A DNA stretch of 64,000 bases from the IMG/VR virus record IMGVR_UViG_3300028907_000004, positions 14,464 to 78,463 of that record, one strand, 5' to 3'. The notes under the pieces are model-generated. The model searched no databases. It had not been told where the DNA came from and was given only the letters and a program-made list of their open reading frames with translations. Below are positions 11,231-43,605 of the stretch, piece after piece (position 1 is the stretch's first letter; every line of letters begins with the position of its first letter). The stretch comes from a virus. Its lineage: Duplodnaviria; Caudoviricetes. A program made the position numbers and the translations under genes.

Positions 11231-11245
11231 AAAAATGGTCTACGT

Positions 11246-11332: not shown

Positions 11333-11357
11333 GGTGTTCTCCTTGGCAAATACGTGG

Positions 11358-28234: not shown

Positions 28235-29041
28235 ATGGCAAAGAAAGTCGAAAAGAAGGAAAAGGGGTTTTGTGGCGTCAAGGGTCTGACCGAAGACATG
28301 CTGATCGCCGCCGCCGAAGACCTGAACGCCTCCATTGGCCTTGATCCGGCCATCGACGTGGAAGACCTCGAAGGCGAAGAACTTCTGGAAGCCGTCAAGA
28401 CGGGCATGAGCGAAGTCTACACCGCCGACCAGCTGGAAGACGACACCTGGAAGGTGATGGAACTCCTGGGCATCGAAGCGCAGGAAGCCCCCGAAGAGGA
28501 AGAACCGGAACCGGAAGAGAAGCCCAAGGCCAAGGCCGGCAAGAAGGCTTCCAAGAAGACCGAACCGGAACCGGAAGACGACGACAACGGCGACGATGAT
28601 GGCGACGATGATGGCGGGGAAGAAGAGGCCCCGAAGTCCAAGAAGGGCAAGGCCGCTCCCGCCCCGGCCAAGGGCAAGAAGGCCGCGCCCAAGGAAGAGC
28701 CGGAAGATGACGGCGATGGCGACGACGATGAGCCGAAGGCCAAGAAGGGTGCGAAGGCCAAGGCCGAACCCGCCAAGAAAGCCGCTCCCAAGAAGGCCAA
28801 CGACGGCCCCAAGTACAGCCGTTCTGACGCCTTCGGGGAAACCCTGATGGCCGGCAAGAAGAACAAGAAGTCCCTGGCCCAGATCATCGAAGATTCCGAC
28901 GCGCTGTACAGCGAAAACACCGGACGCCGCAGCAATCCGAAGGAATCCGCCTGGTGCGCCAATCTGTCCCTGAAGGCCCTGGCCGCTTGCGGCTACGTCA
29001 AAGTGGACGGCGACAGCGTCGAAATTCTGGTCCGGCCCTAG
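28235..29041 (+). CDS. low-complexity acidic/Lys-rich protein (possible DNA-binding)
   Basis: DDDDG and PKAKKG blocks, strong GC3 codon bias suggesting high expression. Confidence 0.75.
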   Translation: MAKKVEKKEKGFCGVKGLTEDMLIAAAEDLNASIGLDPAIDVEDLEGEELLEAVKTGMSEVYTADQLEDDTWKVMELLGIEAQEAPEEEEPEPEEKPKAKAGKKASKKTEPEPEDDDNGDDDGDDDGGEEEAPKSKKGKAAPAPAKGKKAAPKEEPEDDGDGDDDEPKAKKGAKAKAEPAKKAAPKKANDGPKYSRSDAFGETLMAGKKNKKSLAQIIEDSDALYSENTGRRSNPKESAWCANLSLKALAACGYVKVDGDSVEILVRP

Positions 29042-29275
29042 CGTCTTATGGTGACGCTGATACTCCTGGCCGAATGGTTACCCACTCCCCGTAACCTTCG
29101 GCTGGGAACCCCCACCCGGAAAACGGGCACGAAGCCCGCAACGACTACCGCACCGCAGAGGCCGGTGGCTGGTCTGGGGAGAGATAACGACAGAACGCCC
29201 TGTGAACGGCGTAATTGGAAAGCGCGGCCCCAGCCGTCCCGCCTACCATAACGGGACCACGCAACATCCGGGCCC
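29041..29275 (+). ncRNA. candidate structured non-coding RNA
   Basis: stems GCCGAA/TTCGGC + GGTTAC/GTAACC, CCCG/CGGG, ACGCC/GGCGT, CTGGGG/CCCCAG, GTCCCG/CGGGAC; followed by terminator. Confidence 0.4.
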
Positions 29276-29315
29276 AACCCGCCCCCGGCCAGCTTCGGGG
29301 GCGGGTTTCTTTTTC
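29276..29315 (+). terminator. intrinsic terminator
   Basis: 12-bp stem AACCCGCCCCCG/CGGGGGCGGGTT then TCTTTTT. Confidence 0.8.
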
Positions 29316-29333
29316 AGAAAAAGAGAGGTTGTT

Positions 29334-30416
29334 ATGAAAAGACTCAAGACCCCGTTGACCATTCGTGGGGATTGCTTGTACTGCCCGCTTTCTCTTTCCC
29401 TCGACACCTACTGGAACTGTCTTTGTGACTGTTTGCATTGCTACCTTCGCCGCTTGAATAGGACTTGGGGAACGGACCTGCGCCCCGTAGAGCACGAGCT
29501 TGTGGAAAGAATCCTCACCAACGGTCTGAAGAACAAGAACCCCAAGACGCCGCTTGCGCACGCCCTAGCCGCCAAGAAGACGCTTCGCTTTGGAAACAAA
29601 GCCGATCCCTTTCAACCCGCTGAAAGAATCTACCTTGTAAGCGCAGAAGCCCTTCGCGCACTCAAAAAACTCCAATGGTCCTTCGTAATCCAGACCATGG
29701 TTACTGACGTTATGATGGACTACGAGCGCATCATAATGAATTGTCGGGACTTCGCTTGGATTCAGCCTATTATCAGCCCCGGCATGGAAAAGGACTGGGA
29801 AGTTCTGGAGCGTAAGCGCACGACAAACCCGATCCAACGCCTAGAGCATCTTGTTGCCTTGAAGAAGCAGGGCATGCGCGTAGCTGTAAATGGTGAGCCC
29901 TTTATTCCCGGCTTCCATACGGTTCAGGATTTTGAAGATACATGTAAACTTCTCCGGTCCTACGGCATCCGAAGATACAACACCTATAACTTTCACTTCA
30001 ACGATCATGTGGCCAAGAATATGCACGAAGCTGGCATAGACATCCGGGCCATTTACGAAAACAACCAAGACGGGCCTTGGAAGAAAATACTCGTCCAGTT
30101 GTTAGATATTGCCAAGAAATACGACATTCTGTTGGGCTGTCCGGACTTTGTGAATACAGGCCCGCAATATCGGGAAATGGCCAATACCTGCTGCGGCGTA
30201 GACGTTTCCAACCCAATGACCTTCAATACGCATACATGGAAACGTATGATCCAAGACGGGGTTCCCCTTGAGGAAATCTACGAGTCCACCAAAGACGGCG
30301 TAGGGGATGAGGAAGAGGGCCGCAAAGTGCTGTTTGGGGAAGGTCCGCAAGGAATCTATACGATGGAAGATGCCGGACTTGTAAAGAAGGGTAAAGTTCT
30401 GGACACCAAGGAGTAG
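29334..30416 (+). CDS. radical SAM enzyme, SplB/COG1533-like (paralog 1)
   Basis: CLCDCLHC = CxxxCxxC; DPFQPAE motif. Confidence 0.88.
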   Translation: MKRLKTPLTIRGDCLYCPLSLSLDTYWNCLCDCLHCYLRRLNRTWGTDLRPVEHELVERILTNGLKNKNPKTPLAHALAAKKTLRFGNKADPFQPAERIYLVSAEALRALKKLQWSFVIQTMVTDVMMDYERIIMNCRDFAWIQPIISPGMEKDWEVLERKRTTNPIQRLEHLVALKKQGMRVAVNGEPFIPGFHTVQDFEDTCKLLRSYGIRRYNTYNFHFNDHVAKNMHEAGIDIRAIYENNQDGPWKKILVQLLDIAKKYDILLGCPDFVNTGPQYREMANTCCGVDVSNPMTFNTHTWKRMIQDGVPLEEIYESTKDGVGDEEEGRKVLFGEGPQGIYTMEDAGLVKKGKVLDTKE

Positions 30417-30418
30417 CC

Positions 30419-31285
30419 ATGCTGATACACACCCCGGTAGAGAAGTACAGTGGCATCTATGTGAAAAGGGAGGATATGGCCGTAAACGATCCCACGGCCC
30501 CGCCCTTTTCCAAGATGCGTGGAGTTCTGGCGCATCTTACCAAGTTACGTGATTCCGGCATCAGAACAGTAGGATACGCCGAAAGTGCCATTTCTATGGC
30601 TGGTTGGGGACTTGCTTGGACCGCCCGGCAGCTTGGCCTTCAAGCGGTTATTTTTGCCCCTGTGTACAAATGCGACCACCCATATCTTGAAGTGTTGCGT
30701 ATGCATAGAAAACACTGGGAGCGTCTTGGGGCACAAATAGTGCCCATGCCGGCGGGACGTACCAAGATCATTTATTATCAGGGCCGGAAGTGGATGGAGG
30801 ACCATTACCCGAAAAACAGCGAAATGTTGCCCATCGGTATGAGTTTCCCCGAAACCGTAGAGGCTACTGCCGCAGAGTACGTTTGGACGCTGAAAGAGTA
30901 CAAACTCCAGCCCAAAAACGTCGTGTTGTGCGTAGGAAGCGGAACCATTGCCGCCGGGGTGGCACGAGGAATTGCGGAGAGCAATTTGAAAACGAAGCTC
31001 TGGGGAATACTCACGCGGGACGGTAGCGTGCCGGAAAAACTGCGCTACATGGAAAAACTCGCAGGGTTTCCTCTATCCTCCGAGGGCATGCTGGGCACGT
31101 TCTCTTCCGCTTCGGTTACATTGCTGAGTTCTGGGTTCGAATACACACAGAAATCCAAGATCGTTGTCCCCTTTCCCTGCAATCCCTATTACGACGCAAA
31201 AGCGTGGGAGTGGCTTGCTAGCAGAAAGTCTACCTACGAAGAATTTAACAGAAAACAAACGCTTTTTTGGAACATCGGGGCCTAG
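30419..31285 (+). CDS. PLP-dependent enzyme, fold type II (ACC deaminase/D-Cys desulfhydrase-like)
   Basis: TPVE...YVKRED...SKMRG Schiff-base region; VLCVGSGTIAAG phosphate loop. Confidence 0.85.
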   Translation: MLIHTPVEKYSGIYVKREDMAVNDPTAPPFSKMRGVLAHLTKLRDSGIRTVGYAESAISMAGWGLAWTARQLGLQAVIFAPVYKCDHPYLEVLRMHRKHWERLGAQIVPMPAGRTKIIYYQGRKWMEDHYPKNSEMLPIGMSFPETVEATAAEYVWTLKEYKLQPKNVVLCVGSGTIAAGVARGIAESNLKTKLWGILTRDGSVPEKLRYMEKLAGFPLSSEGMLGTFSSASVTLLSSGFEYTQKSKIVVPFPCNPYYDAKAWEWLASRKSTYEEFNRKQTLFWNIGA

Positions 31286-31316
31286 TCTGTAAATATCCTC
31301 GTAGGAGGACAAAAAT

Positions 31317-31991
31317 ATGAAACTCGACGCATTTGTTGAATTACGCAATAGGCTTCTAGCCAAAGACCCCAATTTCATCGTCATACGCAAAACCCCGGCG
31401 GTACTGAACGCACTAGGCCCGTCCAACGACGGCAAGGTGTGGTATTGGGACGCGGTAAACGGAAGGGCCATTCTTGTGTACACGGTGGAGTCCGCGGCCA
31501 ACCTAGCCGCCGACTTCTCCAAATACGAAAAAAGGGCCGAACAGTTCCTCAACAAACTCCTCAATCAGCCCATTAAGCCGTTGTCTTTTGGAATCACGCA
31601 GACGAAAGAAGACTGGTTCGACAAGATATTTAGGGAAGCGGCGACGAAGATTTGTAAAGAAATAAAAAACGACAGAGCTTTCTTCGTTACAATGGAGCCT
31701 GGCGACTATGTTGTTTGGGAAGTTGTAGACGATCCCGCGAAGGAAGTGGATGTCCAGTTTTACTCCCGACTGTCCCCAGATATTGAGAACCGCTTTTCCC
31801 GAAAGACCAGAAATCAGACTTCCGGAATAATCCACATGTTGTTGGACTTGACATTTCCCGACAATTCCAATATCATGTTTTTCTTCGGAAAGTATGAGCG
31901 CGAAGACGGTTCCATCTTTCTGGAAGTGAAAGGCGGCTACAAGAAACAACAGGGCATCGTTATTCAGTTCAATGACGTAACTCGCATCTAG
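31317..31991 (+). CDS. hypothetical protein within radical SAM cluster
   Basis: AGGAGG RBS, 224 aa, no motif recognised. Confidence 0.7.
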   Translation: MKLDAFVELRNRLLAKDPNFIVIRKTPAVLNALGPSNDGKVWYWDAVNGRAILVYTVESAANLAADFSKYEKRAEQFLNKLLNQPIKPLSFGITQTKEDWFDKIFREAATKICKEIKNDRAFFVTMEPGDYVVWEVVDDPAKEVDVQFYSRLSPDIENRFSRKTRNQTSGIIHMLLDLTFPDNSNIMFFFGKYEREDGSIFLEVKGGYKKQQGIVIQFNDVTRI

Positions 31992-32001
31992 TGGAGAGAC
32001 A

Positions 32002-33438
32002 ATGACCAAGAAAGAACTTCTTCAGATGGATTACTGGGAACTGCGTAAAGTGGTTTCCAAACTCGTTCCTCGCACGTTCCGTCTTCGGGAAGACGCCAGA
32101 AAGGGCGAAGCGGTCAAGGAAAAGGGCAGAAAAAAGAATTACCACCAATACGATCTGGTGGGACAGGAAATGACCAAGCGGGAACGCCTTCTGAATACGG
32201 AAGAGGTCAACAGCTTTCTCGAAATATCCTGCCGGGCCCAAGCCTGCCCTATGCCGCTGAATTTGGACGTGTATGACGGCCTTCTTTGTGGCTTCAAATG
32301 CATCTATTGCTACGCCGACGCCTTCCGCGCCTCCCTGTACACATCTTTCTTCGATAACAGCAAATCCGTGGGACTTCGCCACTGTAATCCGGACTTCTAC
32401 AAGGCGAAGCTGGACGATCTGTTCAATAAGTCCCTGGGAAAAGACCCGTTGGAAATCAAGAGCGACGTTGGAAAGGCTCTGGCCAAGCGCATTCCCATTC
32501 GTTTCGGTATTCGGTTTGAAGACTTTCTGCCCGCAGAAAAGTCGAAAGGGATCAGCCTGGAACTTCTGAATTACCTCCGGAAAGCCCAGTACCCGCTGAT
32601 GATCAACACCAAGTCCAACCTCGTAGGCGAAGACGCCTACGTGAAGGCTTTGAGTGGGAATAAGGCCAAGACCGCCGTACACATCACTATGATTTCCTGT
32701 GACGAAGACTTCTTGCGGGTAATTGAGCCGGGGGCACCCACCTTTGAAAAACGCATCCAAGCTGCCAAGAATCTCGTGGACGCTGGCGTGCGTGCCGTTG
32801 CCCGAATCGAACCCTATATGGTGTTCTTGAACGATTCGCAGGACATGGTTCAAGAATACTTTGGACGAATGAAGGAAGCTGGGGTCACGCATCTTACCTT
32901 TGACACATACTCCTATTCCGCCAACAACCCCGGAATCCGCCAGAATTTTGTTAGAAGGGGCTATGACTGGGAACGTATGTTCCTCCTTACCTCCGATTCC
33001 CAGGCCATAGGCTCGCTCCTGCTCTCTAAATTCATGGAGATGTTTAGAGAGCAGGGGTTTTCCGCTTCCAGTTTTGATATGGGCGGCGTTCCCGATAACA
33101 ACGACCCCATTTGTTGTTCTGTAGGCGATTGGTTTAAGGATGCTGGCTATAATTGGGGTTGCGTGGTTGGGGCGGTTCGGTACATCAAGGAACGCGGCCT
33201 GAAGCCTACGTCGTGGAATAATTTCCACAGATACGTGATGCGCAACGGCGGCTTCCTATCTAGGGTTCTTGAAGAAGAGGTCAAGGAACTCTGGAACCTG
33301 GAAGGAAATGCGTCCTACTTCGTCAATTGGGGTCGCGGTATTGAGCCTTGCGGTCATGATGAGCATGGAATCCTCTGGCATTACAGGGAAAACCCCGAAA
33401 CCGACTTTCGCTATAAAATACTGGAGGGGGTGGTATAA
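32002..33438 (+). CDS. radical SAM enzyme, SplB/COG1533-like (paralog 2)
   Basis: CGFKCIYC = CxxxCxxC; EDFLPAE and INTKS motifs; RIEP. Confidence 0.88.
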   Translation: MTKKELLQMDYWELRKVVSKLVPRTFRLREDARKGEAVKEKGRKKNYHQYDLVGQEMTKRERLLNTEEVNSFLEISCRAQACPMPLNLDVYDGLLCGFKCIYCYADAFRASLYTSFFDNSKSVGLRHCNPDFYKAKLDDLFNKSLGKDPLEIKSDVGKALAKRIPIRFGIRFEDFLPAEKSKGISLELLNYLRKAQYPLMINTKSNLVGEDAYVKALSGNKAKTAVHITMISCDEDFLRVIEPGAPTFEKRIQAAKNLVDAGVRAVARIEPYMVFLNDSQDMVQEYFGRMKEAGVTHLTFDTYSYSANNPGIRQNFVRRGYDWERMFLLTSDSQAIGSLLLSKFMEMFREQGFSASSFDMGGVPDNNDPICCSVGDWFKDAGYNWGCVVGAVRYIKERGLKPTSWNNFHRYVMRNGGFLSRVLEEEVKELWNLEGNASYFVNWGRGIEPCGHDEHGILWHYRENPETDFRYKILEGVV

Positions 33439-33696
33439 ATGGAATTTAGCTATTTGAAGTTTCTCCTATACGCAGGGGGGCTTGCCGTCTTTCTTTTCTT
33501 TTTCAACATGTGGTATTTTCGCCGTCTTCAGACAGCAGCAGCCCGTCGTCAGAGAAAAGAAGAAGAGGCGCATATCGAAAACATAAAGAAATGGAAAAGC
33601 TACGCTGTTACTTGTAAGAAGTTTGAGAACGGCGAATGCGACCTGTCCATTGCTTGTGATACTTGTTCATATTATAAGGAGCCTGAAGATGAGTAA
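33439..33696 (+). CDS. small membrane protein with C-terminal Cys motif
   Basis: N-terminal TM, C...C...CDTC. Confidence 0.6.
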   Translation: MEFSYLKFLLYAGGLAVFLFFFNMWYFRRLQTAAARRQRKEEEAHIENIKKWKSYAVTCKKFENGECDLSIACDTCSYYKEPEDE

Positions 33697-34498
33697 GAAG
33701 GTCAATAAACTTCCAGAAGAAACAATGAAACAAATCTTCGCACACGCGGTAGCCCTGGATCAGAACGGCAGGTTGAGAAATACCATCTACGCGAAGGATT
33801 CCACCGTGTACGTCCTGAACTCTGACAACACTGTTCTGCTTCGCTTCAGTACGAGCCAGCCCCTTCCGATTGACGGCGAAGTCCGTTTCAAGGCGTCCGA
33901 CTACGAAGGCGACAGCTTCCAAATCGAAGACGGCAAGATGGTATTCACGACTCGTTGCGGCGGCGTGGAAAGAAAGAAGTCCTGCGGCCTTCCGGACCTG
34001 ACCTTTGCTGATGTGGAACACATCTTCGATTCTCATGAGCCGGATACCGATGAGCCGTTTGCCGCCGCCCTGGTCCTGACGAAGGACATCGTTTCCATCC
34101 TCGACGAGAACCTTTCTCATGTCGAAATTAGTGGCGATAAGAAGACGGGGTGGCTCATAGTCCAGCGGGACATCTACAGCGGCGCAAAAGTGGAAATACG
34201 GCAGATCAAGGCACACGGTATGGGCGTACACGATGCGTCCGAAGTGAGCCAGAACTTCGGCCCCATCGGTTTGCGCACCAACGACTTCATTGCCCTGTTC
34301 CTGTTCCACGGTTCGATCAACTTTGCTTTCCAGTTACTGGAAAAACGCGTTGTCTATATCGAAGCGGAAACGGCGGCATACGATCTGAAAGGCGTAGTTG
34401 CCCAGTGCGTCTACGATGAGATGGGCACTATAGGGGCCACAATTTCCGAGGAATCCGAGGAAAAAAAGAAACCTACTAGACGAACCACAAAGAAGTAG
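33689..34498 (+). CDS. hypothetical protein (possibly clamp-like fold)
   Basis: 269 aa, AAGGAG RBS; fold guess from alternating beta patterns only. Confidence 0.6.
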   Translation: MSKKVNKLPEETMKQIFAHAVALDQNGRLRNTIYAKDSTVYVLNSDNTVLLRFSTSQPLPIDGEVRFKASDYEGDSFQIEDGKMVFTTRCGGVERKKSCGLPDLTFADVEHIFDSHEPDTDEPFAAALVLTKDIVSILDENLSHVEISGDKKTGWLIVQRDIYSGAKVEIRQIKAHGMGVHDASEVSQNFGPIGLRTNDFIALFLFHGSINFAFQLLEKRVVYIEAETAAYDLKGVVAQCVYDEMGTIGATISEESEEKKKPTRRTTKK

Positions 34499-34537
34499 CT
34501 AGAAGGTTTGTAAATACTTTCAACGGAGGGAGTTTCT

Positions 34538-34687
34538 ATGGGAGGAAAGAGCAGAAAGACGGGAGGCGTCAGCAAGGCCCTCATCGACAAGCTCACCGGA
34601 TCGCAGGTACAAAAGGAACGTAAAGGCAAATCCAAACAATCCAAGTCCGACGCTGCCGACAAGAAGGCGGGGATGGGCGTAGGATAA
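34538..34687 (+). CDS. 49-aa basic peptide (MGGKSRKTGG...)
   Basis: GGAGG RBS, TGTAAATA upstream, not in supplied ORF track. Confidence 0.6.
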   Translation: MGGKSRKTGGVSKALIDKLTGSQVQKERKGKSKQSKSDAADKKAGMGVG

Positions 34688-34719
34688 ATCACCAAAACAC
34701 CGTAAAGGAGAAACAGACC

Positions 34720-35160
34720 ATGGCCAAGAAAGAAGCACCCAAGACCACGAAGAAAGCCGCCCCCGCCGCCAAGAAGACCGCCGCCAAGAAGACCGCCGCC
34801 AAGGGCAAGCCCACCGGCAAAGAATCCATTCTCGACAAGGCCCGTGCCGCACGCGAAGCCGCCAAGGAAAACGCCCAGGCGTCCATCTCCAAGGACGGCC
34901 TTCTGAAGGAAATCGCCAAGAAGCTGGGCATTGCCAAGGACGACGTTCAGACCGTCGTTGACGCCTTCCTCGACGCCGCCGGACAGCACCTGGCCGCTGG
35001 CGAGAAGGTCAGCGTCCACGGCTTCGGCATCTTCAACACTTCCGTCATGGCTGCTCGTGACGGAGTCAACCCCCTGACCGGCGAACCCATGCACATCGCG
35101 GAATCCACCCGCGTCACGTTCAAGGCTTCCACCGCCCTGAAGGAACTCGTCAACGGGTAA
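34720..35160 (+). CDS. HU/IHF-family DNA-binding protein with Lys/Ala-rich N-terminal tail
   Basis: VSVHGFGIF...ARDGVNPLTGEPMHI...VTFKASTALKE. Confidence 0.92.
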   Translation: MAKKEAPKTTKKAAPAAKKTAAKKTAAKGKPTGKESILDKARAAREAAKENAQASISKDGLLKEIAKKLGIAKDDVQTVVDAFLDAAGQHLAAGEKVSVHGFGIFNTSVMAARDGVNPLTGEPMHIAESTRVTFKASTALKELVNG

Positions 35161-35164
35161 TTCC

Positions 35165-35986
35165 ATGCTCAATTACCTTACGCTCATGGAACAGGCGGGG
35201 ATCGCCCCGAACTTTTGGACCAGCAGGGCGTACTTGGAAAGAGCAGGAGCAGTAGAACAGACAAAAGGGAACCTCATCTGGCTGGAAGCGGATGAGGTTC
35301 CGCTTTTTCCCACCCTGTCCTTTTCTGGTATGATCGCACCTATGCGAGAATGGCCGGTTCAGTATTGCTGGAGCGACTTTGAGGGCTTCTCCTCCGAAAC
35401 GACCAACAAGGAATTTCTGGATTATGAGTTTATCTATAACCCAACCGACTTTCTTGAGATGGCTGGAGGAAAATGGGCTGTGTTTAGAAAAAACAGCCGT
35501 AAATTTCCACGCCGTTTCGAAGGGTCCGTCTATTCCAGAGGATATGTCCCTAGCTACGGGGATTTGGTCGGATTGCTACAAAGGTGGGCTAGTCGTTTTA
35601 ACGAAGACGACACTATTCACGACGCCGCCATTATCCTAAAGTATTTGGAAGACCTTTCCCCTGGTGTGGATTTTGGCTGGAAAACGCTTCGATTGAATAA
35701 TACCCATAAACCAGAAGATTTGGTGGGAATTAATATCTGGGACCGTAACTGGAAGTATATCAACTTCCGGTACTGTTTTTGTGATCCCGATTACCCTTTT
35801 ATTTCAGAATACATGCGATGGTTGTTTTATACGGACCCCGCCATACTTGCGCAGAAGCGCCTTGTATGTGACGGCGGGTCCGTAGATCGTCCAGAATTAA
35901 AAGCCTTCAAAGAAAAAATGAACCCGCTCCAAGTCCGTGAAGTATATACTTGGGGCAAAGAACCAGGAGAAGGATATGGAGATTGA
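35165..35986 (+). CDS. DUF2156 / LPG_synthase_C-like aminoacyl-tRNA-dependent transferase
   Basis: DYEFIYNPTDFLEMAGGKWAVFRKNSRKF and C-terminal DGGSVDRPELKAFKEKMNP resemble the family's DYIY..DL..L.GKK...RN and D.G..GLR..K.SY.P motifs; no TM domain. Confidence 0.65.
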   Translation: MLNYLTLMEQAGIAPNFWTSRAYLERAGAVEQTKGNLIWLEADEVPLFPTLSFSGMIAPMREWPVQYCWSDFEGFSSETTNKEFLDYEFIYNPTDFLEMAGGKWAVFRKNSRKFPRRFEGSVYSRGYVPSYGDLVGLLQRWASRFNEDDTIHDAAIILKYLEDLSPGVDFGWKTLRLNNTHKPEDLVGINIWDRNWKYINFRYCFCDPDYPFISEYMRWLFYTDPAILAQKRLVCDGGSVDRPELKAFKEKMNPLQVREVYTWGKEPGEGYGD

Positions 35987-36998
35987 TAGAAAGCAGCTAC
36001 TGGACGCGCTTACCCTGGCCCGTCCCGGTCTTGCCTCTTCGGACGTTGTAGAACAGGCGTCCATGTTCGTGTTTCGTCCCAAGGACATTGTAACCTTTAA
36101 TGACGAACTTTGCGTGCGCGTCAAGATCAAGTCCGGTATCGAAGGCGCTGTCCAGGCTCAAGAGCTTTACGCCTACCTTTCCAAGAGTAAGGCCGAAAAG
36201 CTCACGATGGAAACGACGGAAGACGAACTCATCATCAAGGCCGGGAAGCGCGCAAGCGTAGGCATCCGGCTGTCCAGCAAAATCTACCTTCCGGTGGACG
36301 GGATCAATGATGCGGAATCCTTTGAACCGCTTCCCAAGAACTTTACCAAGGCCCTGTCCCTGGTATCGCAGACGGCGGCGAAAAACGCCTCAAGCATGCC
36401 CATTCTTGCTGCTCTTCATTTCGTAGGGGACAAGGTGGAATCCTGCGACAATTTCCGGATCACCGCCTACACATTTGAAGAAGGCACCGACTTCCCCGAA
36501 TTTTTGCTTCCGGCAAACATGGTCAAGGAAGTGCTCAAATTTGAGCCGGTAGAGTATTCTGTTGTCGAGGGTTGGGCGCACTTCCGAACTGCCGAGGGTG
36601 TGTGGCTCTCGTGCCGTACCGTGGCTGCGGGGCCGAAGGGCTACCCGGACCTGTCCGGAATCGTAGAAGTTGAAGGCGTCACTATCGAATTTCCCGAAGG
36701 TTTCGCAGAAGTTCTGGACAGGGCTTCCGTTTTTGTTGATAAATCCGCTACCTTGGACGAGTTTGTAACAATTTCTGTAAAAGAGGGTAGAGCGTCTGTC
36801 GTAGCGGAAGGGACTATGGGTTGGTTCAGGGAATCGGTGAAAGTAGACTCTGATAATCCGGAATGCTCTTTTAACGTCAATCCCGGCTTTCTGTCTGGAA
36901 TCCTTCCGCTTCTGTCCAACGCTATCGTGGGCGACAACTACCTGCGACTGGACGGTGAGGATTTCCTTCACGTTATGTGTTTGTGTGTAGAAAAATAG
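35976..36998 (+). CDS. dnaN: DNA polymerase sliding clamp (beta-like)
   Basis: IDRKQLLDAL start, ESCDNFRI, YPDL, three-domain length 340 aa. Confidence 0.8.
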   Translation: MEIDRKQLLDALTLARPGLASSDVVEQASMFVFRPKDIVTFNDELCVRVKIKSGIEGAVQAQELYAYLSKSKAEKLTMETTEDELIIKAGKRASVGIRLSSKIYLPVDGINDAESFEPLPKNFTKALSLVSQTAAKNASSMPILAALHFVGDKVESCDNFRITAYTFEEGTDFPEFLLPANMVKEVLKFEPVEYSVVEGWAHFRTAEGVWLSCRTVAAGPKGYPDLSGIVEVEGVTIEFPEGFAEVLDRASVFVDKSATLDEFVTISVKEGRASVVAEGTMGWFRESVKVDSDNPECSFNVNPGFLSGILPLLSNAIVGDNYLRLDGEDFLHVMCLCVEK

Positions 36999-37007
36999 GA
37001 GAACGAC

Positions 37008-37187
37008 ATGGGCGGCAAAAGACAGCAGAGAATCGTTTCTATGGAAGCGCAGGGGAAACTGGACTTTGAGAAGTACGGCCACCGCCGCTTCCGCTGGCGC
37101 AAGCCGTGTGCCGAAGAACACGCCTACATGCGCGGTTACGCCAAGGCCAAGTATGGCGTTTTTGTTCGATATGGCCGGCATTTCTAA
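37008..37187 (+). CDS. 59-aa basic peptide (MGGKRQQR...)
   Basis: AGGAG RBS, not in supplied ORF track. Confidence 0.55.
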   Translation: MGGKRQQRIVSMEAQGKLDFEKYGHRRFRWRKPCAEEHAYMRGYAKAKYGVFVRYGRHF

Positions 37188-37197
37188 ATAATCAACA

Positions 37198-37421
37198 AGC
37201 GGGGCGGCGTGGATGGTGACACGCTTTTAGAACTAGAAAGCTCGACAATGCTAGCCATGGCCTACGGCAACGCAGGATGTAATGGCCGGGGCGGACAAGG
37301 CCGCATAACCCGAATGGGCATTCAAAGTTCCTCCTCAATGTTCCGGTATGGGCGGGACAAGCGCTCGCCCGATGCGTTGAGATGATACCGAGCACGGCCG
37401 GTTCGATTCCGGCCCCCGCTT
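37198..37421 (+). ncRNA. tRNA-like RNA with ~150-nt expanded variable arm
   Basis: acceptor AGCGGGG/CCCCGCT, D-arm GCGTG/CACGC, T-arm GCCGG-TTCGATT-CCGGC, non-canonical anticodon-like hairpin, GCTCG/CGAGC closing a structured insert. Confidence 0.7.
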
Positions 37422-37560
37422 TTCACATAATTCCATCCAGACACGGGGTGGAGATCACGGAAAGGGAAGACCCCACCCAAACGGGGTACTGTCTAACCGT
37501 CCTGACCGAGACAGCGCAAAGCGAGTTGTGGTGCGTAGGAGGGACTTTCTAGGGAGGAGC

Positions 37561-37998
37561 ATGAACGACGAACCTACAGAATGGCGTACCTGGGGAATAT
37601 ACGCTATGTCTAAAGAAGGCTACATGACCATAGCTTCCGAAATCCCAGGAGGGAAGCCCGCCGGAACGTATCTCATCCCACGAATAGTAGGAAGCGTAAC
37701 ACCCAGATACCGCCTGACCAAGAAAGGAGTCTTGATCACCTACAAGATTTCTGACCTTTTGAAAAAGATCTGGGGAGTCAAGCGAACCCTCACCAATGAA
37801 AACGCAGCGGAAATGAGAAAAAACGCCTACGCCTGGAATGAGCGTAGACGGGCCTTGCGAGAAGAACAGGAAACTATACGCCGCCCAAGACTGGCGCGTT
37901 CCCGCACAGAAATAGACCCCCAGGACGACTACGGGAACGAAGACCCCTTTATGGACCCGTCCCACCCTCAAAACGACCCCTTTTCAAACTGGAGGTAG
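37561..37998 (+). CDS. hypothetical protein
   Basis: GGAGGAG RBS, 145 aa. Confidence 0.65.
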   Translation: MNDEPTEWRTWGIYAMSKEGYMTIASEIPGGKPAGTYLIPRIVGSVTPRYRLTKKGVLITYKISDLLKKIWGVKRTLTNENAAEMRKNAYAWNERRRALREEQETIRRPRLARSRTEIDPQDDYGNEDPFMDPSHPQNDPFSNWR

Positions 37999-38000
37999 TC

Positions 38001-38354
38001 GTGGCCAGACGAAAACCGCCGAAGACGAAGGAAATCACGCTCAAAGAGCTTCTGTATAAAATACGGAAGACCTATGACGACGCCATAGACGAACTACGCA
38101 AGGAACAGGAACAGAAATTGCGGGAAGCCATTACCAAATTCTGCCCACTTCCCAAAGAAAAAGAGTTTCTTGTGGCGGATTACTCCTTCAAAGGGAAAAC
38201 TTTCCAATACAAAGACTTTCGGCATCAATGGGGCGATGTTATTCTGTTCGGCGGGACGCTTCGTAATAATGGCGAAGTATCAGAAAAACAGTATTGCGAG
38301 TCCAGAATCAACACCGAGCATATAAAAATCACAGTACCCGCAGAGGAAGAGTAA
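38001..38354 (+). CDS. hypothetical protein
   Basis: GGAGG RBS with GTG start. Confidence 0.65.
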   Translation: MARRKPPKTKEITLKELLYKIRKTYDDAIDELRKEQEQKLREAITKFCPLPKEKEFLVADYSFKGKTFQYKDFRHQWGDVILFGGTLRNNGEVSEKQYCESRINTEHIKITVPAEEE

Positions 38355-40966
38355 TGGCCGGATTCTTTCAGAAGGATGACGTATCACACGGAGCTAGGGT
38401 CAAGCCCAAGCAAAAAGTCGAAGCGTTTGGAACTTGCGAGACTTGCGGGCTGTATGAATATGGAAATTCCGTCAAACCCTTTGGAGAGAACAGAAAGCGC
38501 ATAATGATTGTGACCGAAACCCCTTCAGAAGGGGAGGCCCGAAAAGGCAAGATGTGGTCTGGGGAGCAAGGGCAGCTTCTCCGATCCATTTTGCGCGAGA
38601 ACGGAATTGACCTGAATCGGGATTGCGTGTCCATCTACGCAGTACGATGTAACATTCCAGAAGACCGCAACCCCCAACCCAACGAAGTTATCGGGTGTCG
38701 GGATAAACTGTTCAAAGCCATCGAGAAATACGAGCCTAGACTGGTCGTATCATTGGGCTATTTTGCTTTGTTTGCTCTTATAGGGCATCGGATGGGCGAC
38801 GGGCTGGGCGGCACGCTTGATCGCTGGAGAGGGGCCAAAATTCCGTATCACGAAATCGGAGCGTGGCTGTGTCCTACATTCCATCCTATCTACGTGATGG
38901 CAAACGAGAAAAACCCCAACGTCGAACTCTACTGGGAACGGGACATCAAGAATGCTATATGCCAGCTGGACAAAGAACTTCCAAATCCCATTAACGAAGA
39001 TTCGGTTGACGTTTTGGTGGAGCCGAAAGACATCAAAGATCGGCTTGGTTATCTCCTTTCCCGTCCAGACGAAATCAGAGCCGCAGTAGACTGGGAAACA
39101 ACGGGCCTGAAGCCCCATGCCAAGGGGCACCGCATCTTTACCGCCGGATTTTCTACGGGGCTTGATAACACATTTGCCTTTAAGATGGAACCGCAGTACC
39201 GGGAACCGCTCATACAAATCGCCAAAAGCCGAACCGTGGCGAAAATAGCGGCCAACATGAAATTCGAAGATACGTGGGCCCGGCAATGCCTGGGGACACA
39301 TATCAACAATTGGTATTGGGACACTATGGTTGCGCAGCATGTTATCGACAACCGCCGTTACATTACCGGCCTCAAATTCCAATCCGCTGTCCGTTATGGC
39401 GTATGGGATTATGATTCTGAAATCTCTCCTTACTTGAGGGCCGAAGACGAAAGCAACGCAAACGCCTTCAACCGCATATATCAGGCCCCCTTACCGAAAC
39501 TGCTAAAGTACAACGGTATGGACTGCCTACTTGAGTTCCTTCTCCATGAAGATCAGATTTCCGAAGTAAACGAACAAGGCACTATGGACGGCTACATGCT
39601 ATTACATGCCGGAATACTTGCGCTGTCCGATATGGAATGGCGCGGCCTTCCGGTAGAAGATACGCACGTGGTCCAAGAGATCAGACGCCTTGAACAGGAA
39701 GTCGCAGAAATCGAACAAAGCATATGGGCGTCCAAAGAAGGGAAGAAATGGAAAAAGAAGTATGGAACGGACGCCAATTGGAATAGTAATCAGCAGTTTG
39801 TAGAAGTGCTTTCTGAATGCGGCGTAGAGTTTGAAAAGAAGACCGCCAGTGGGCAGTTCGCCGCCGACAAGGGCGTTCTGGAGATGTTGGACCATCCCAT
39901 TGCGAAGCAAATCCTACGTGCCAGAAAGCTGACGAAGAACGGGGGAACATTCCTGGCCAATATCCGGAAAGAGGCCGTAAGTGGCTCTCTCCATCCAATA
40001 CACAACCTTCACAAGGTTATCACATTTCGGTCTTCCTGCGAATCCCCGAACACGCAGAACATGCCTAAACGTGACGAAGAGTCCATGAAGATCGTCCGGG
40101 CGTCCTTTCGCGCCCCGAAGGGTAAGTGTATTGCTGAAATCGACTATTCCGGTGTTGAGGTCCGGGTGGGGTGTTGCTACCACCGGGACAAAAATATGGA
40201 GCGGTACATTCTCGACACTTCTACCGACATGCATAGGGACGAAGCCTGTTCCATATTTTGTTTTGATCCCTATTACATCAACACTGAAGTAATTCAGGGA
40301 AGCGACGACTTGGCCCAGAAATACTTCAAGGCGATTCGAAACAGCGCAAAAAACGGATGGGTCTTTGCCCAGTTCTATGGTGACTGGTACAAGGCTTGTG
40401 CGAAGAACATCTGGAATCAGATCACTCACTGGAACCTCAAGGCCCCGGACGGACGGCCCTTGTTTGACCATCTCCGAAAACAGGGAATCAAAAACCTCAA
40501 GGATTTCGAATCCCATCTCAAGGACTGTGAGCGGAAACTCTGGGAAGAACGCTTTGGTGGGTACGGTAAGTGGAAGGAGAAGACCTGGAAGAAGTATATG
40601 AAACAGGGCTACCTGGACACCTATACGGGTATGCGGTTGTCGGCCCTTTCCTCCAGAAATGAAATCCTCAATGCCCCGATCCAGGGAAGCGCGTTCCACT
40701 GCCTGTTATGGTCCGTTATTGAAATGAACAAGAAGCTCAAGAAGGAAAAGTGGGAAACCGTGCCAGTAGCCCAGATTCATGACTCTTGTATTTTCATAAC
40801 CACTCCTGACGAGATAGATGAATTGTATAAAGTAGCACACGAGATAATGTGCGTAAAGATTGTAAAACACTGGCCCTGGCTAGTCATTCCACTTGAAATA
40901 GATATGGACATTACAGAACCGGGAGGGGCCTGGAGTGAGCAAGAGTCCTATAAGCCCACAAAATAG
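38354..40966 (+). CDS. polA: family A DNA polymerase with N-terminal UDG-like and 3'-5' exonuclease domains
   Basis: CETCGL..TFHP (UDG family 4-like); DWETTGL (ExoI); IDYSGVEVR, R-x3-K-x7-YG, QIHDS (motifs A, B, C). Confidence 0.93.
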   Translation: MAGFFQKDDVSHGARVKPKQKVEAFGTCETCGLYEYGNSVKPFGENRKRIMIVTETPSEGEARKGKMWSGEQGQLLRSILRENGIDLNRDCVSIYAVRCNIPEDRNPQPNEVIGCRDKLFKAIEKYEPRLVVSLGYFALFALIGHRMGDGLGGTLDRWRGAKIPYHEIGAWLCPTFHPIYVMANEKNPNVELYWERDIKNAICQLDKELPNPINEDSVDVLVEPKDIKDRLGYLLSRPDEIRAAVDWETTGLKPHAKGHRIFTAGFSTGLDNTFAFKMEPQYREPLIQIAKSRTVAKIAANMKFEDTWARQCLGTHINNWYWDTMVAQHVIDNRRYITGLKFQSAVRYGVWDYDSEISPYLRAEDESNANAFNRIYQAPLPKLLKYNGMDCLLEFLLHEDQISEVNEQGTMDGYMLLHAGILALSDMEWRGLPVEDTHVVQEIRRLEQEVAEIEQSIWASKEGKKWKKKYGTDANWNSNQQFVEVLSECGVEFEKKTASGQFAADKGVLEMLDHPIAKQILRARKLTKNGGTFLANIRKEAVSGSLHPIHNLHKVITFRSSCESPNTQNMPKRDEESMKIVRASFRAPKGKCIAEIDYSGVEVRVGCCYHRDKNMERYILDTSTDMHRDEACSIFCFDPYYINTEVIQGSDDLAQKYFKAIRNSAKNGWVFAQFYGDWYKACAKNIWNQITHWNLKAPDGRPLFDHLRKQGIKNLKDFESHLKDCERKLWEERFGGYGKWKEKTWKKYMKQGYLDTYTGMRLSALSSRNEILNAPIQGSAFHCLLWSVIEMNKKLKKEKWETVPVAQIHDSCIFITTPDEIDELYKVAHEIMCVKIVKHWPWLVIPLEIDMDITEPGGAWSEQESYKPTK

Positions 40967-41741
40967 CAAACGAATTCGTTTGGTGCTTACAAAACGTACA
41001 GATTTGCGCCTTTTGATACGAATGGAAGATCACTATTCAAAACCACAAGGTTTTGTAGGAAGAAATTTATGTTATGCTGTGTATTGCGATAACGCCTATT
41101 ATGGACACATAGTGGCCGGGTCCGCTACCAAGCACTTGTCTGGAAGGCATGAATTTCTAGGAACCACACAAGAACAGCTTAACAATATAGTGAACAACAT
41201 CTTTTTTAATGTGTCCCCAGTCGAAGGAAAGTATCCATTTAGAAATTTTACATCTGCTGTTGTAAAAGAATTTGTAAAAAAAGTAAAAGTGGATTGGCCT
41301 AGATTTTATCAAGATTCTGTGCTAGGGTTTGAAACGCTTGTAGAACTCCCAAGAAAAGGAACACTATACCTACGCGCTGGTTGGTCTGTTGTCGGTCAAA
41401 CAAAAGGCTACACGTGCAAAAGAACTGCCGGCACAGGAACGGACTCTTGGAGTGGAAAGCGGGTTTGGAATACCGATCCGGAACAATTACGCCCTAAATT
41501 GATATTGTGTTTTCGAGTAAAACCAAAAAGGAGAAACCATCATGCCCCTTCACTTGGACCATCGTCCCAAAACCCTCAAGAAGGTTGTAGGCCAGGGCGC
41601 GACGGTAGCTGCCCTCAAGGCGGTACTGGAACGCGACGACATCCCGCACGCCTTCCTCTTCCACGGCCCGTCCGGGTGCGGAAAGACCACCCTGGCCAGA
41701 ATCGTAGCCAAAAAGCTGGGATGTTCGGAAATGGATATTAA
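40935..41741 (+). CDS. DUF4338 (DruA)/Mom-like protein
   Basis: HYSKPQGFVGRNLCY; GFETLV..RKGTLYLRAGWSVVGQTKG; AT-rich; last 200 nt overlap next gene. Confidence 0.6.
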   Translation: MSKSPISPQNSKRIRLVLTKRTDLRLLIRMEDHYSKPQGFVGRNLCYAVYCDNAYYGHIVAGSATKHLSGRHEFLGTTQEQLNNIVNNIFFNVSPVEGKYPFRNFTSAVVKEFVKKVKVDWPRFYQDSVLGFETLVELPRKGTLYLRAGWSVVGQTKGYTCKRTAGTGTDSWSGKRVWNTDPEQLRPKLILCFRVKPKRRNHHAPSLGPSSQNPQEGCRPGRDGSCPQGGTGTRRHPARLPLPRPVRVRKDHPGQNRSQKAGMFGNGY

Positions 41742-43605
41742 GGAGTTGAACGTGGCGGATGTGCGCGGTATCGACTCTGTGCGCGAAATTACCCGTTCCA
41801 TGATGCTTCGGCCCATGGGGGGAAATGCGCGTGTGTGGATTCTTGACGAATGCTTTCCTGCCAACACCCCAATAACTACGCCGACTGGAGAAAAGCCCAT
41901 ACAGGAATTAGTGGAAGGGGATTCTGTATGCTCTCTGTTTGGAAAAAACGACGTTGTGGAAAAAACATTTAGAAAAGAAATTCCTCTCAGCAGGGTTGTT
42001 CGGATTGACTTTTCCAACGGGAAGGTTCTTTTTTGTTCGGACCACCACCAGTTCTTTACCCCGGACGGTTGGAAGTTCGCAAAAGACTTGATTTCTGGGG
42101 ACTTTACTTTTAGCATCCTTCGTAATACTATGGGAGAAAACGGAGGACTTTATGAAGAGGTACAAGAGAACTATTTGTGTGGTGTGCCGAACGAAGCTCA
42201 AGCCCCACCAGAAAGTTTGCTGTTCGATAGCGTGTCGAAGTCGTTTGCGGGTAACGAAAAAGACCAGACTGTGCGAATACTGCCAAGTGAAAAAGATACC
42301 ATATTACCCGAATCGTCAGGAGAAGTACAACCGGAAATACTGCTCTCTTCAATGTCTGGCAGCAGCGAAAATGGAGAATCCGGAGTTTCGGAAAAAGCTC
42401 CACAATCCGGAAGTGTCGCAGAAGATAGCCTTGGCGCAGAAGGCTTTTTATTCGACAGAAGCGGGGAAAGCGGAAGCGCAGAAAATATCTATTCGCATGC
42501 GAACGAACAACCCTATGGAGAGTGCGGATGTTGTAGAAAAAATGCGAGTGACGAAAGAGCGGAACGGAACGTTGCGCCTACCGCCGAAGATTCGTGGTGG
42601 GAACGGTCAATTAACGCTTCCCCAGAAAACACTTCATGGGCTTCTGGGTCCGGATTGGAAAGCGGAGTTTGTGGTGAATACGGGAGTAAAGAGAATGTGG
42701 AGCCGTCCCATTTACCCCAATCATTACAAACTGGACTTGGCGCTTCCGGGACTGCTTCTTTGCGTAGAGGTAGACGGAGCGAATCACAGAACGAAGCTGA
42801 TTTCCTCTCAAGATCAGAAAAAGACGGAATTTCTGAAAGGGTTAGGGTGGACCGTATTACGTGTTACGAACGAGGAGGTAATGACGAACTCTTCCTTGGT
42901 GTTGTCGAAGATACAGAAAGAAGTAACGGCTTTGTTACGATGTACGACGTAACAGTAACGGGCCACCCTAGCTACTTTGCAAATGGTTTCGCGGTACACA
43001 ATTGTCACGCCATGAGCAAGGACGCGCAGAACGCGCTTCTCAAGCCGCTGGAAGATTGCCCCGACCACGTGTATTTCATGTTGTGTACTACCGATCCCCA
43101 GAAGCTCATTGCTACCATCCGGAATCGGTGTTCGCAGTTCGCCCTTACTCTTGTTTCCGACGAAGACTTGGCCGACTTGTTGAACGCCGTAGCCGCAAAA
43201 GAAGGCGTGGAAATTCCCGAATCGGTCATCAACAGTATCGTGTCCGCTTCCGGGGGATCGCCGCGTGCCGCCCTGGTCCACCTGGATAAGGTCAAGGACT
43301 TGCCCGAAGATGAGATGGAAAAGGCCGTTTCCCGAATCGACACCAACGCTTCTGCCGCCATTGACCTTTGCCGGGCCTTGTTGAAAGATAAGCCCAATTG
43401 GTCCGAAATCGCCAAGGTACTGTCGAACCTTTCCGGGGGAGAACCGGAGCAGATCAGGATGGCTGTATTGGGCTACTGTAACGCCATCCTGCTGAAGGGG
43501 AAGTTCAACGGAAGGGCGTGCTTGGTTATGGAGTGTTTCAAAGACCCCTTTTACAATGACGGCAAGTTCCGTCTTACTCTTGCTTGCGCCGCTTCAGTGG
43601 CGTAG
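41542..43605 (+). CDS. clamp-loader AAA+ subunit (DnaX/RFC-like) containing an intein
   Basis: HRPKTL..VVGQ, GPSGCGKTT, spliced Walker B WILDE-CHAMS, QNALLKPLE, TIRNRC. Confidence 0.92.
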   Translation: MPLHLDHRPKTLKKVVGQGATVAALKAVLERDDIPHAFLFHGPSGCGKTTLARIVAKKLGCSEMDIKELNVADVRGIDSVREITRSMMLRPMGGNARVWILDECFPANTPITTPTGEKPIQELVEGDSVCSLFGKNDVVEKTFRKEIPLSRVVRIDFSNGKVLFCSDHHQFFTPDGWKFAKDLISGDFTFSILRNTMGENGGLYEEVQENYLCGVPNEAQAPPESLLFDSVSKSFAGNEKDQTVRILPSEKDTILPESSGEVQPEILLSSMSGSSENGESGVSEKAPQSGSVAEDSLGAEGFLFDRSGESGSAENIYSHANEQPYGECGCCRKNASDERAERNVAPTAEDSWWERSINASPENTSWASGSGLESGVCGEYGSKENVEPSHLPQSLQTGLGASGTASLRRGRRSESQNEADFLSRSEKDGISERVRVDRITCYERGGNDELFLGVVEDTERSNGFVTMYDVTVTGHPSYFANGFAVHNCHAMSKDAQNALLKPLEDCPDHVYFMLCTTDPQKLIATIRNRCSQFALTLVSDEDLADLLNAVAAKEGVEIPESVINSIVSASGGSPRAALVHLDKVKDLPEDEMEKAVSRIDTNASAAIDLCRALLKDKPNWSEIAKVLSNLSGGEPEQIRMAVLGYCNAILLKGKFNGRACLVMECFKDPFYNDGKFRLTLACAASVA
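41851..43002 (+). mobile_element. intein (384 aa) in clamp-loader Walker B
   Basis: starts CFPANTPITTPTGEKPI, block B CSDHHQF, ends MYDVTV...YFANGFAVHN followed by +1 Cys. Confidence 0.92.
42152..42952 (+). CDS. DUF559/Vsr-like (EDxHD) homing endonuclease nested in the +1 frame of the intein
   Basis: own GGAGG RBS at 42142; CxxC/CS-xC repeats; YKLDLA..LCVEVDGANH..QDQKKTEFLKGLGWTVLRVTN. Confidence 0.88.
   Translation: MKRYKRTICVVCRTKLKPHQKVCCSIACRSRLRVTKKTRLCEYCQVKKIPYYPNRQEKYNRKYCSLQCLAAAKMENPEFRKKLHNPEVSQKIALAQKAFYSTEAGKAEAQKISIRMRTNNPMESADVVEKMRVTKERNGTLRLPPKIRGGNGQLTLPQKTLHGLLGPDWKAEFVVNTGVKRMWSRPIYPNHYKLDLALPGLLLCVEVDGANHRTKLISSQDQKKTEFLKGLGWTVLRVTNEEVMTNSSLVLSKIQKEVTALLRCTT

Follow-up and report, generated by a model that had tools for sequence, protein, structure and literature searches.

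The sequence analyzed here, called the window throughout, is a stretch of 64,000 bp corresponding to bases 14464-78463 of a 78,463-bp IMG/VR virus record, for which CheckV reports a completeness of 100%. Between about 20 kb and 56 kb of the window, the genes of the + strand form a replication and nucleotide-metabolism module. Within it lies a group of genes encoding two radical S-adenosylmethionine (SAM) enzymes, a fold-type II pyridoxal phosphate (PLP) enzyme, a PCNA-fold protein, a micro-protein of 49 amino acids (aa) and a DUF2156-fold protein, which are described below as a candidate DNA modification module. A preliminary description, made from the sequence alone, had listed the radical SAM, PLP and DUF2156-like proteins, together with a tRNA-like RNA, as parts of an aminoacyl-RNA-dependent DNA modification system; the genes for the PCNA-fold protein and the micro-protein, two core parts of the module, were absent from it.

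Both radical SAM proteins are of the SplB/PA0069 type. The first, rSAM1 (29334..30416, + strand, 360 aa), matches phrog_13321 (E 2.9e-11) and phrog_9252, labelled 'DNA repair photolyase'; the second, rSAM2 (32002..33438, + strand, 478 aa), matches PF04055 above cut-off and phrog_13321 with an E-value of 1.3e-19. The CxxxCxxC motif of the [4Fe-4S] radical SAM superfamily is found in both, as C29-x3-C33-x2-C36 in rSAM1 and as C96-x3-C100-x2-C103 in rSAM2, and is at least 90% conserved in either family alignment. Profile comparison identifies the two proteins as paralogues (hhalign probability 99.9, E 1e-31), and the pair of paralogous radical SAM enzymes noticed earlier is thus confirmed by motifs, by PF04055 and PHROG matches and by profile alignment. 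Both also match the NCBIfam PA0069/Rv2578c models, with scores far under the cut-offs (38.5 and 56.6 bits against 360; 27.5 and 52.3 bits against 430), and are clade-level relatives of PA0069/Rv2578c only, not members of those equivalogs. When the two proteins were compared by phmmer with PDB sequences, no match was found.

The closest characterized relatives come from the Pseudomonas phage M6, a Yuavirus, in which gp53 is an SPL-like radical SAM isomerase, converting N-alpha- to C-alpha-glycinylthymine on DNA, and gp52 decarboxylates the C-alpha-glycinylthymine in DNA (PMC8989533). The family profile of rSAM1 aligns with gp53 over 256 columns (hhalign probability 96.4, E 1.2e-9), that of rSAM2 over 178 columns (probability 96.0, E about 1e-9), so that homology extends over the radical SAM core in both cases. 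Both proteins also contain additional conserved cysteines, as expected for a second cluster: the residues at least 90% conserved in rSAM1 are C17, C29, C33, C36, C269, C286 and C287, and those conserved in rSAM2 are C82, C96, C100, C103, C371 and C372. In rSAM1 the extra residues C17, C269, C286 and C287 could hold an auxiliary cluster.

Of the radical SAM enzymes of the module, rSAM2 is conserved best. In two close relatives (L013:6625-8481; L012:6483-8330) it is interrupted by a mini-intein of about 140 aa, whose insertion point coincides exactly with the third cysteine of the CxxxCxxC motif, a finding that is counted in favour of the interpretation proposed below. In L012, an upstream open reading frame (ORF) gives a faint PT-HINT match.

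The gene located between the two radical SAM genes, at 30419..31285 (+ strand), encodes the PLP enzyme, whose assignment to fold type II in the preliminary description is borne out by a match to PF00291. It also matches phrog_7093 (E 5.7e-51), the family of the gp52 and ViI gp226 decarboxylases, and can be aligned to M6 gp52 with 35% identity over 287/288 residues (E 1e-51). K32 is aligned to K36 of gp52, the proposed Schiff-base lysine; both the full-length homology and the conserved lysine expected of such decarboxylases are therefore present.

The protein encoded at 35165..35986 (+ strand, 273 aa) is soluble, and is modelled by AlphaFold (pLDDT 94.1) as a double-GNAT protein of the DUF2156/FemX/MprF-C fold. 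Its own sequence matches no Pfam family at E-values up to 5 or 10, and the gathering threshold of PF09924 is not reached; precomputed annotations report PF09924 for 6 of its 73 homologues, as a match described as faint in the two contigs that show such a mark. The family profile matches the DUF2156 protein of PDB entry 2hqy (E 3.7e-4), in an alignment including its basic-helix motif KRNHINRF. The same entry is the best Foldseek match of the model (E 2.7e-10, TM 0.67), followed by A-PGS/MprF, Sbb17/Sba18, FemX and ATE1, with A-PGS, MprF, Sbb17 and FemX at probability 1.0. Sbb17 and Sba18 are aminoacyl-tRNA-dependent peptide synthases. The most conserved segment of the family is helix 102-117, where R108, K109 and N110 are invariant and K113 nearly so. 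In this family, aminoacyl-tRNA is bound through a positively charged helix that connects GNAT I and GNAT II (PMC7334510), and the model shows both the double-GNAT fold and the charged helix. The protein is predicted to be an aminoacyl-tRNA-dependent transferase. The soluble DUF2156-like protein proposed in the preliminary description is in this way supported indirectly, by the annotated homologues, by the 2hqy profile match and by the predicted fold.

The arrangement of two GNAT subdomains with an intervening basic helix is shared with FemX and with the DUF2156/LPG_synthase_C proteins (the MprF C-domain, A-PGS/L-PGS, ErdS and 2hqy). Unlike these, the protein described here is soluble, about 270 aa long, has a reduced first subdomain, scores under the Pfam threshold and is encoded in a phage replisome operon; a lipid is an unlikely acceptor. 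The family comprises 268 clusters at 50% identity (E < 1e-30), all made of stand-alone proteins of about 250-290 aa, and a search for longer, fused forms found none, which is weak evidence.

The gene at 33686..34498 (+ strand) encodes a 270-aa protein, for which AlphaFold predicts a two-domain sliding-clamp fold (pLDDT 82.6). No Pfam match was found, none of its more than 125 homologues is annotated, and comparison of the family profile with PDB sequences produced noise only, so that a fold search was needed. Foldseek retrieves PCNA and the 9-1-1 clamp with an E-value of 3e-10, and VIA-align superimposes 217-223 residues on yeast PCNA and human Rad9 with a Z of 15.4 and a root mean square deviation of 4.5. 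Two repeated clamp domains extend across the whole model. As predicted from it, this is a second clamp-like protein, distinct from the replicative clamp encoded further downstream, and a core part of the module.

The family profile of the DUF2156-fold protein was used to collect 102 viral contigs, from which 80 loci were taken and their ORFs searched with iterated hidden Markov models; co-occurrence was counted on the 60 loci having at least 6 kb upstream. The order of genes is nearly constant: helicase, g268, rSAM1, a variable slot, rSAM2, PCNA-like gene, peptide gene, DUF2156 gene, clamp and polymerase, with the module always placed between the DnaB-like helicase and the clamp/polymerase genes. 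The PCNA-like gene and the peptide gene are each present in 59 of the 60 loci, at least one radical SAM gene in 56 and at least two in 53; a third, downstream radical SAM gene is found in 7. From these counts, the core is made of two radical SAM enzymes, the PCNA-like protein, the peptide and the transferase. With 30 of the 60 loci, the PLP gene falls outside this core and represents one of several alternative tailoring genes; its product may be regarded, by homology, as a lineage-variable tailoring step and a predicted decarboxylase of a DNA-bound amino acid. Of the five-gene association expected from the preliminary description, the link between the DUF2156 and radical SAM genes stands (56/60 loci), while the PLP gene is optional and the RNA is not conserved.

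Other genes are found in or beside the same slot in a few relatives. In L068, a gene of a TET-associated glycosyltransferase family (PF20691, E 5e-40; L068:4710-5852) replaces the radical SAM, PCNA-like and peptide genes, and the DUF2156 gene downstream of it is kept; a search for TET/JBP and ThyA in this record, 87% complete, found none. In L016, a DNA methylase and a DUF362 protein are encoded beside the DUF2156 gene. In L056 (L056:8416-8892 and 10803-11555), a protein of 159 aa that combines a zinc ribbon with a phosphopantetheine-attachment (carrier-protein) domain is encoded inside the module, between the peptide and DUF2156 genes, and ThyX directly after the latter; the same module is interrupted by GIY-YIG endonuclease genes.

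The peptide gene, at 34538..34687 (+ strand), lies between the PCNA-fold gene and the gene for an HU-type protein, and is preceded by a GGAGGGAG ribosome-binding site. The basic 49-aa product starts with MGGKSRKxG..S..L, continues with a variable, Lys-rich linker and ends with a short hydrophobic motif of the LFD, GLGL or LLDE type. Residues M1-K7 (MGGKSRK) are invariant in 56 of 56 distinct relatives. When all columns were considered, in an alignment of 45 distinct sequences, those without any variation were M1-K7, G9 and L15. Other proteins of relatives having the micro-protein are only 30-40% identical, and the codons of the invariant residues vary synonymously, with both AGY and TCN used for serine and both AGR and CGN for arginine. 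Since the start of the protein is fixed despite free synonymous change, selection acts on the peptide itself, which is a core part of the module.

A conservation of this kind is typical of a recognition or modification site, and is the basis of the main rival explanation, to which we give a small but appreciable probability: that the system is directed to a peptide, with the micro-protein as its substrate. The transferase would aminoacylate its N-terminal amine, or Lys4 or Lys7, in the manner of L/F-transferase, ATE1 and FemX; the radical SAM and PLP enzymes would then tailor the product, to give a DNA- or clamp-binding peptide, with no base modified. The micro-protein gene is always found directly before the transferase gene, and the fold neighbours of the transferase include FemX and ATE1, which acylate peptides or proteins. 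On the other hand, the nearest characterized relatives of the PLP and radical SAM enzymes act on DNA-bound groups, and the radical SAM enzymes fall in the SplB clade, outside the SPASM and RiPP (ribosomally synthesized and post-translationally modified peptide) maturase clades. The presence of a PCNA-fold protein in the core also speaks for DNA, as does L068, where the transferase persists without the peptide, beside a gene of a DNA glycosyltransferase family.

The 5-(2-aminoethyl)-2'-deoxyuridine (5-NedU) pathway of phage M6 also includes gp51, an amino acid:DNA transferase (ADDT), gp54/gp55, a 5-hydroxymethyluracil (5-hmU) DNA kinase, and gp58, a dUMP hydroxymethylase (PMC8989533). The family models available for the missing steps, PF18724 for gp51 and PF18748 and PF18723 for gp54/gp55, gave no match at E-values up to 1 in a six-frame search of the complete genome, and the same search found no ThyA-type hydroxymethylase and no TET/JBP. 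The partners that form the substrate of gp53 in M6, the 5-hmU DNA kinase and ADDT, are thus not found, and the lack of hydroxymethylase, kinase and aGPT-type transferase noticed earlier in the window holds for the complete genome, including the 14 kb outside the window, where the preliminary description had allowed that 5-hmU pathway genes might refute its proposal.

As in M6, the PLP enzyme is a full-length gp52 homologue with a conserved lysine, the radical SAM enzymes carry, like gp53, extra conserved cysteines fitting a second Fe-S cluster (PMC8989533), and the genes are located among replication and nucleotide-metabolism genes. Unlike M6, the genome described here is without ADDT, without either domain of the 5-hmU DNA kinase and without a ThyA-type hydroxymethylase, and has ThyX; it encodes two radical SAM paralogues instead of one, and three proteins that are missing from M6: the PCNA-fold protein, the invariant micro-protein and the DUF2156-fold transferase. 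The presence of gp52 and gp53 homologues, with the first-step genes missing, supports the earlier suggestion of a route distinct from the one based on 5-hydroxymethyldeoxyuridine (5-hmdU), kinase and aGPT.

A second comparison concerns the Mom protein of phage Mu, a GNAT enzyme that transfers glycine to the N6 of adenine in double-stranded DNA, depending on Gly-tRNA(Gly) (PMC13219725), and for which a FemX-like mode of tRNA binding has been proposed. Both Mom and the DUF2156-fold protein are phage enzymes of the GNAT superfamily, and the latter, too, would move an amino acid from a charged tRNA onto DNA; unlike the solitary, single-GNAT Mom, it is of the double-GNAT DUF2156 type and belongs to an obligate gene set, together with the radical SAM enzymes, the clamp-fold protein and the peptide.

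With SplB and PA0069/Rv2578c the two radical SAM enzymes share the CxxxCxxC core and the clade, and radical chemistry at the C5-methyl of thymine may be expected; the low scores reported above set them apart, and their extra cysteine motifs and genomic partners point to modification, not repair. Repair has nevertheless to be weighed: SPL-like radical SAM enzymes, together with a 9-1-1-like clamp, might reverse UV or radical lesions of thymine. Both enzymes belong to the clade of COG type 'DNA repair photolyase', and for the PCNA-fold protein the match to the Rad9-Hus1-Rad1 checkpoint clamp is as good as that to PCNA. This would leave unexplained the tightly linked gp52-like PLP decarboxylase, the transferase of the aminoacyl-tRNA type and the invariant peptide, and the sources look anoxic, as judged by the names of metagenome-assembled genomes only, so that UV lesions are unlikely there. 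A repair function is considered very improbable.

The tRNA-like element of the preliminary description, 224 nt long, is located at 37198..37421 (+ strand), 1.2 kb downstream of the transferase gene. It shows an acceptor stem of 7 bp (AGCGGGG/CCCCGCT) and a D-like hairpin, and its T arm, with a GGTTCGATTCC loop, is canonical, so that the acceptor stem and T arm expected of a tRNA are both present. The 21-nt 3' strand of T arm and acceptor is identical to that of real tRNA-Met genes: among the tRNA genes called by ARAGORN that carry this 21-mer, tRNA-Met(CAU) accounts for 77 of 90 in genomes and for 37 of 37 in viral contigs. This identity indicates that the element is derived from a tRNA, and is not a chance match. 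It also contains CAUAACCCGA, which we take to resemble the anticodon arm of the E. coli initiator tRNA-Met.

The element is nonetheless not called as a gene by ARAGORN under default conditions, and gives no Rfam match at E-values up to 10; when introns are allowed, under relaxed conditions, ARAGORN reports a weak 'tRNA-Ser(aga)' with an intron of 138 nt. CCA is not encoded, an anticodon arm is not clearly present, and the fold of the element is no more stable than that of shuffled sequences (z -1.1). Two other identities were considered and rejected: a tmRNA, because ARAGORN calls none and G3:U70, encoded CCA and a tag-like ORF ending are all missing, and a tRNA with a group I intron, because no Rfam intron model matches at E-values up to 10.

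The distribution of the element is decisive for its role. It is missing in L013 and L012, in which the proteins of the module share 67-93% identity with those of the window. In L002 it is strongly rewritten, and its closing stem shows one compensatory pair. Genes for tRNAs are found by ARAGORN near the module in only 3 of the 80 loci; these are ordinary tRNA genes (Leu, Gln, Gly), located at the position of the element or close to it. In L006, on the same contig as L037, a normal tRNA-Leu(UAA) gene (L006:14510-14597) directly follows the clamp gene, at the same relative position as the element. The 37198-37421 element is a strain-specific insertion derived from tRNA-Met, and not a conserved part of the module. 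As it is absent in close relatives, it is not a conserved partner of the transferase, and an aminoacyl-tRNA, if used, must be that of the host; by analogy with phage Mu Mom, the host aminoacyl-tRNA would be the likelier donor.

That the RNA, once charged, could serve as a dedicated amino-acid donor for the DUF2156 enzyme, as a mimic of aminoacyl-RNA, is in this light highly improbable: its acceptor stem and T arm are genuine, it lies close to the transferase gene and ordinary tRNA genes occur near the same position elsewhere, yet its absence in close relatives largely refutes the proposal. The claim that the RNA is a component of the system is accordingly not sustained. The broader suggestion that the amino acid comes from a charged tRNA or from a tRNA mimic survives in its first half, for which Mom provides a precedent of transfer from aminoacyl-tRNA to DNA; the mimic finds no support.

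Scanning 83 loci for the T-loop motif produced 17 matches against about 11 expected by chance, and is uninformative as a count. Hairpins similar to a T arm and not called by ARAGORN, with perfect 5-bp stems around a GGTTCRANYCC loop, were found at L031:7600, L039:10009, L066:16319/16404 and L068:6516/12411. Conserved sequence upstream of the hairpin is shared by L039 and L066/L069, so that these phages may have another family of tRNA-like RNAs. In the window, the tRNA-like RNA is directly followed, before a gene for a 156-aa protein, by another feature: a non-coding element of about 110 nt (37422-37530) is almost identical in L002, L013 and L012, where the flanking proteins are only 56-90% identical; it has no Rfam match, folds with a z-score of -1.8, and may be a conserved leader, a regulatory RNA or a DNA site.

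Other features of the region appear to be neighbours or insertions. The three-domain, beta-like replicative sliding clamp (35976..36998, + strand; phrog_947, E 5.6e-28; one homologue carries PF00712) is probably a neighbour and not an enzyme of the module. An HU-type DNA-binding protein with a Lys/Ala-rich N-terminal tail is encoded at 34720..35160 (+ strand; PF00216, E 1.2e-25); its gene is limited to the closest relatives L002, L012 and L013, and is an insert there. Both had been described as interleaved with the enzyme genes, in agreement with these family matches. Two further ORFs gave no significant family match. The first (31317..31991, + strand, 224 aa) gives no match in Pfam, PHROG, NCBIfam or Atlas, and is found in the closest relatives only, with homologues only in L002/L014, and, in L012 and L013, as judged by ORFs of the same size and position. 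The second (33439..33696, + strand, 85 aa), for which the family search gave no significant match, has a homologue in L002/L014 only.

Just upstream of rSAM1, a structured non-coding leader of 284 nt (29042..29325, + strand) ends in a strong intrinsic terminator, made of a GC hairpin followed by a T run. Its fold has a z-score of -3.27, a stability not reached by any of 200 shuffled sequences. Compensatory changes are seen in its hairpins when L002 and L013 are compared, and L012 retains the terminator alone. The leader is probably a transcript boundary or a regulatory element, and not a part of the enzyme system.

Upstream of the module lie, in order, genes for an SNF2 helicase, a primase-like protein and the DnaB-like helicase. 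Downstream are found the clamp, a UDG-PolA fusion polymerase, an intein-containing clamp loader, a RecA-like protein, an FEN nuclease and a DNA ligase, followed by Rad50/Mre11-like genes, a deoxynucleoside monophosphate (dNMP) kinase, a dCMP deaminase and ThyX, which had been attributed to this phage before and is located at 55048-55728.

Some of these genes have unusual structures. The family A DNA polymerase (38294-40966) is fused to an N-terminal UDG-like domain, with PF03167 recorded on its homologues in L010, L012 and L013; some relatives have it divided into a UDG-exonuclease part and a polymerase part. The AAA+ clamp-loader gene (41542-43605) is split by an intein (PF14890, Hint_2), and an ORF of 266 aa is located at 42152-42952, in a frame other than that of the clamp-loader gene. 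A Rad50/SbcC-like ATPase (50655-53356) appears to be split around an Mre11/SbcD-like phosphoesterase, in the order AAA_23 N-terminal part (50655-51605), Metallophos (51602-52510) and SMC_N C-terminal part (52751-53356).

The nucleotide-metabolism genes of the operon (dNMP kinase, dCMP deaminase and ThyX) might also be taken to indicate a pathway acting on precursors or small molecules, in which a modified nucleotide or metabolite is made before replication, and not on DNA. The phosphopantetheine-carrier-domain protein and ThyX inside the L056 module would fit such a pathway, but the PCNA-fold protein in the core and the homology to enzymes acting on polymeric DNA favour chemistry on DNA, and the precursor pathway is judged quite improbable.

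On balance, our judgement leans, with modest confidence, towards a post-replicative DNA-base hypermodification module, placed in the replication operon of an uncultured phage lineage and formed by a five-part core (two SPL/M6-gp53-like radical SAM enzymes, PCNA-fold protein, micro-protein and DUF2156/FemX-fold transferase) plus a variable tailoring slot. Most likely, it adds an amino-acid-derived group to phage DNA and dispenses with the initiating enzymes of the known pathways. DNA is taken as the substrate because three of the enzymes have DNA-acting relatives, because a clamp-fold protein is in the core, because the place of the module in the replisome operon is fixed, and because DNA-modification genes occupy or flank the same slot in sister phages.

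In the mechanism that we infer, in all its steps, ordinary thymine DNA would be made by the phage with dCMP deaminase, ThyX and dNMP kinase, and the PCNA-like ring would keep the enzymes on duplex DNA. A radical SAM enzyme would take a hydrogen at the base, most simply from the C5-methyl of thymine as in SPL chemistry, and the radical step would create or rearrange a carbon-linked, amino-acid-derived side chain, bypassing 5-hmdU, the 5-hmU DNA kinase and the amino acid:DNA transferase. In lineages having it, the PLP enzyme would act like gp52 and decarboxylate the alpha-amino acid bound to DNA, leaving an amine. The DUF2156-fold enzyme would add an aminoacyl group, from a host aminoacyl-tRNA, to the base adduct or amine, or to the GGK end of the micro-protein, which may act as acceptor or carrier. 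The tRNA-like RNA at 37198-37421 would not be required.

Several points weigh against the hypermodification module. DNA modification is here a prediction from genes; the likeness of the radical SAM enzymes to gp53 is remote (about 20% identity), and the Pfam DUF2156 model fails to reach the transferase itself. To our knowledge, characterized DUF2156/FemX enzymes act on lipids, peptides or small molecules, and DNA is not among their acceptors. As acyl transfer uses up the carboxylate needed by the decarboxylase, transferase and PLP enzyme cannot work in simple series on one residue, and the absolutely conserved N-terminus of the micro-protein could itself be the substrate, as discussed for a peptide-modification system. 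Finally, tblastn with the rSAM1, PCNA-like and DUF2156 proteins found no match in 50,697 phage records, and with rSAM2 only a 5-kb faecal fragment; a nucleotide search of the same records with 29000-38000 of the window found no match either. As far as these sequence searches indicate, no cultured phage among these GenBank records carries the module. A full-text literature search retrieved the M6 and Mom papers, and none describing this gene set, which consists of known kinds of enzymes in a new arrangement, with the known initiating steps absent.

A variant combining peptide and DNA, considered unlikely, would make the micro-protein a clamp-tethered carrier: the transferase would load the amino acid of a host aminoacyl-tRNA on its GGK end, and the radical SAM enzymes would couple the residue, or the peptide, to a thymine methyl radical on DNA held by the PCNA-like ring. 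If true, hypermodified or peptide-linked DNA would be formed by way of a peptide, without kinase or 5-hmU.

The characterized thymidine hypermodifications that we know of all begin with 5-hmdU and the action of a DNA kinase and of an amino acid:DNA transferase, and the only tRNA-dependent DNA modification known to us so far is that of the stand-alone Mom. In the module, enzymes related to those of the late M6 steps are joined by a tRNA-type transferase, a separate clamp-fold protein and an invariant peptide, and the known first steps are absent; if the module modifies DNA, it would represent a third entry to base hypermodification, in which a C-H bond is activated directly on DNA by a radical. 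Far from being rare, the family comprises about 270 clusters at 50% identity and 102 viral contigs, and, if the proposal is true, it would be of practical value as a source of restriction-resistant DNA chemistries and of DNA-labelling enzymes.

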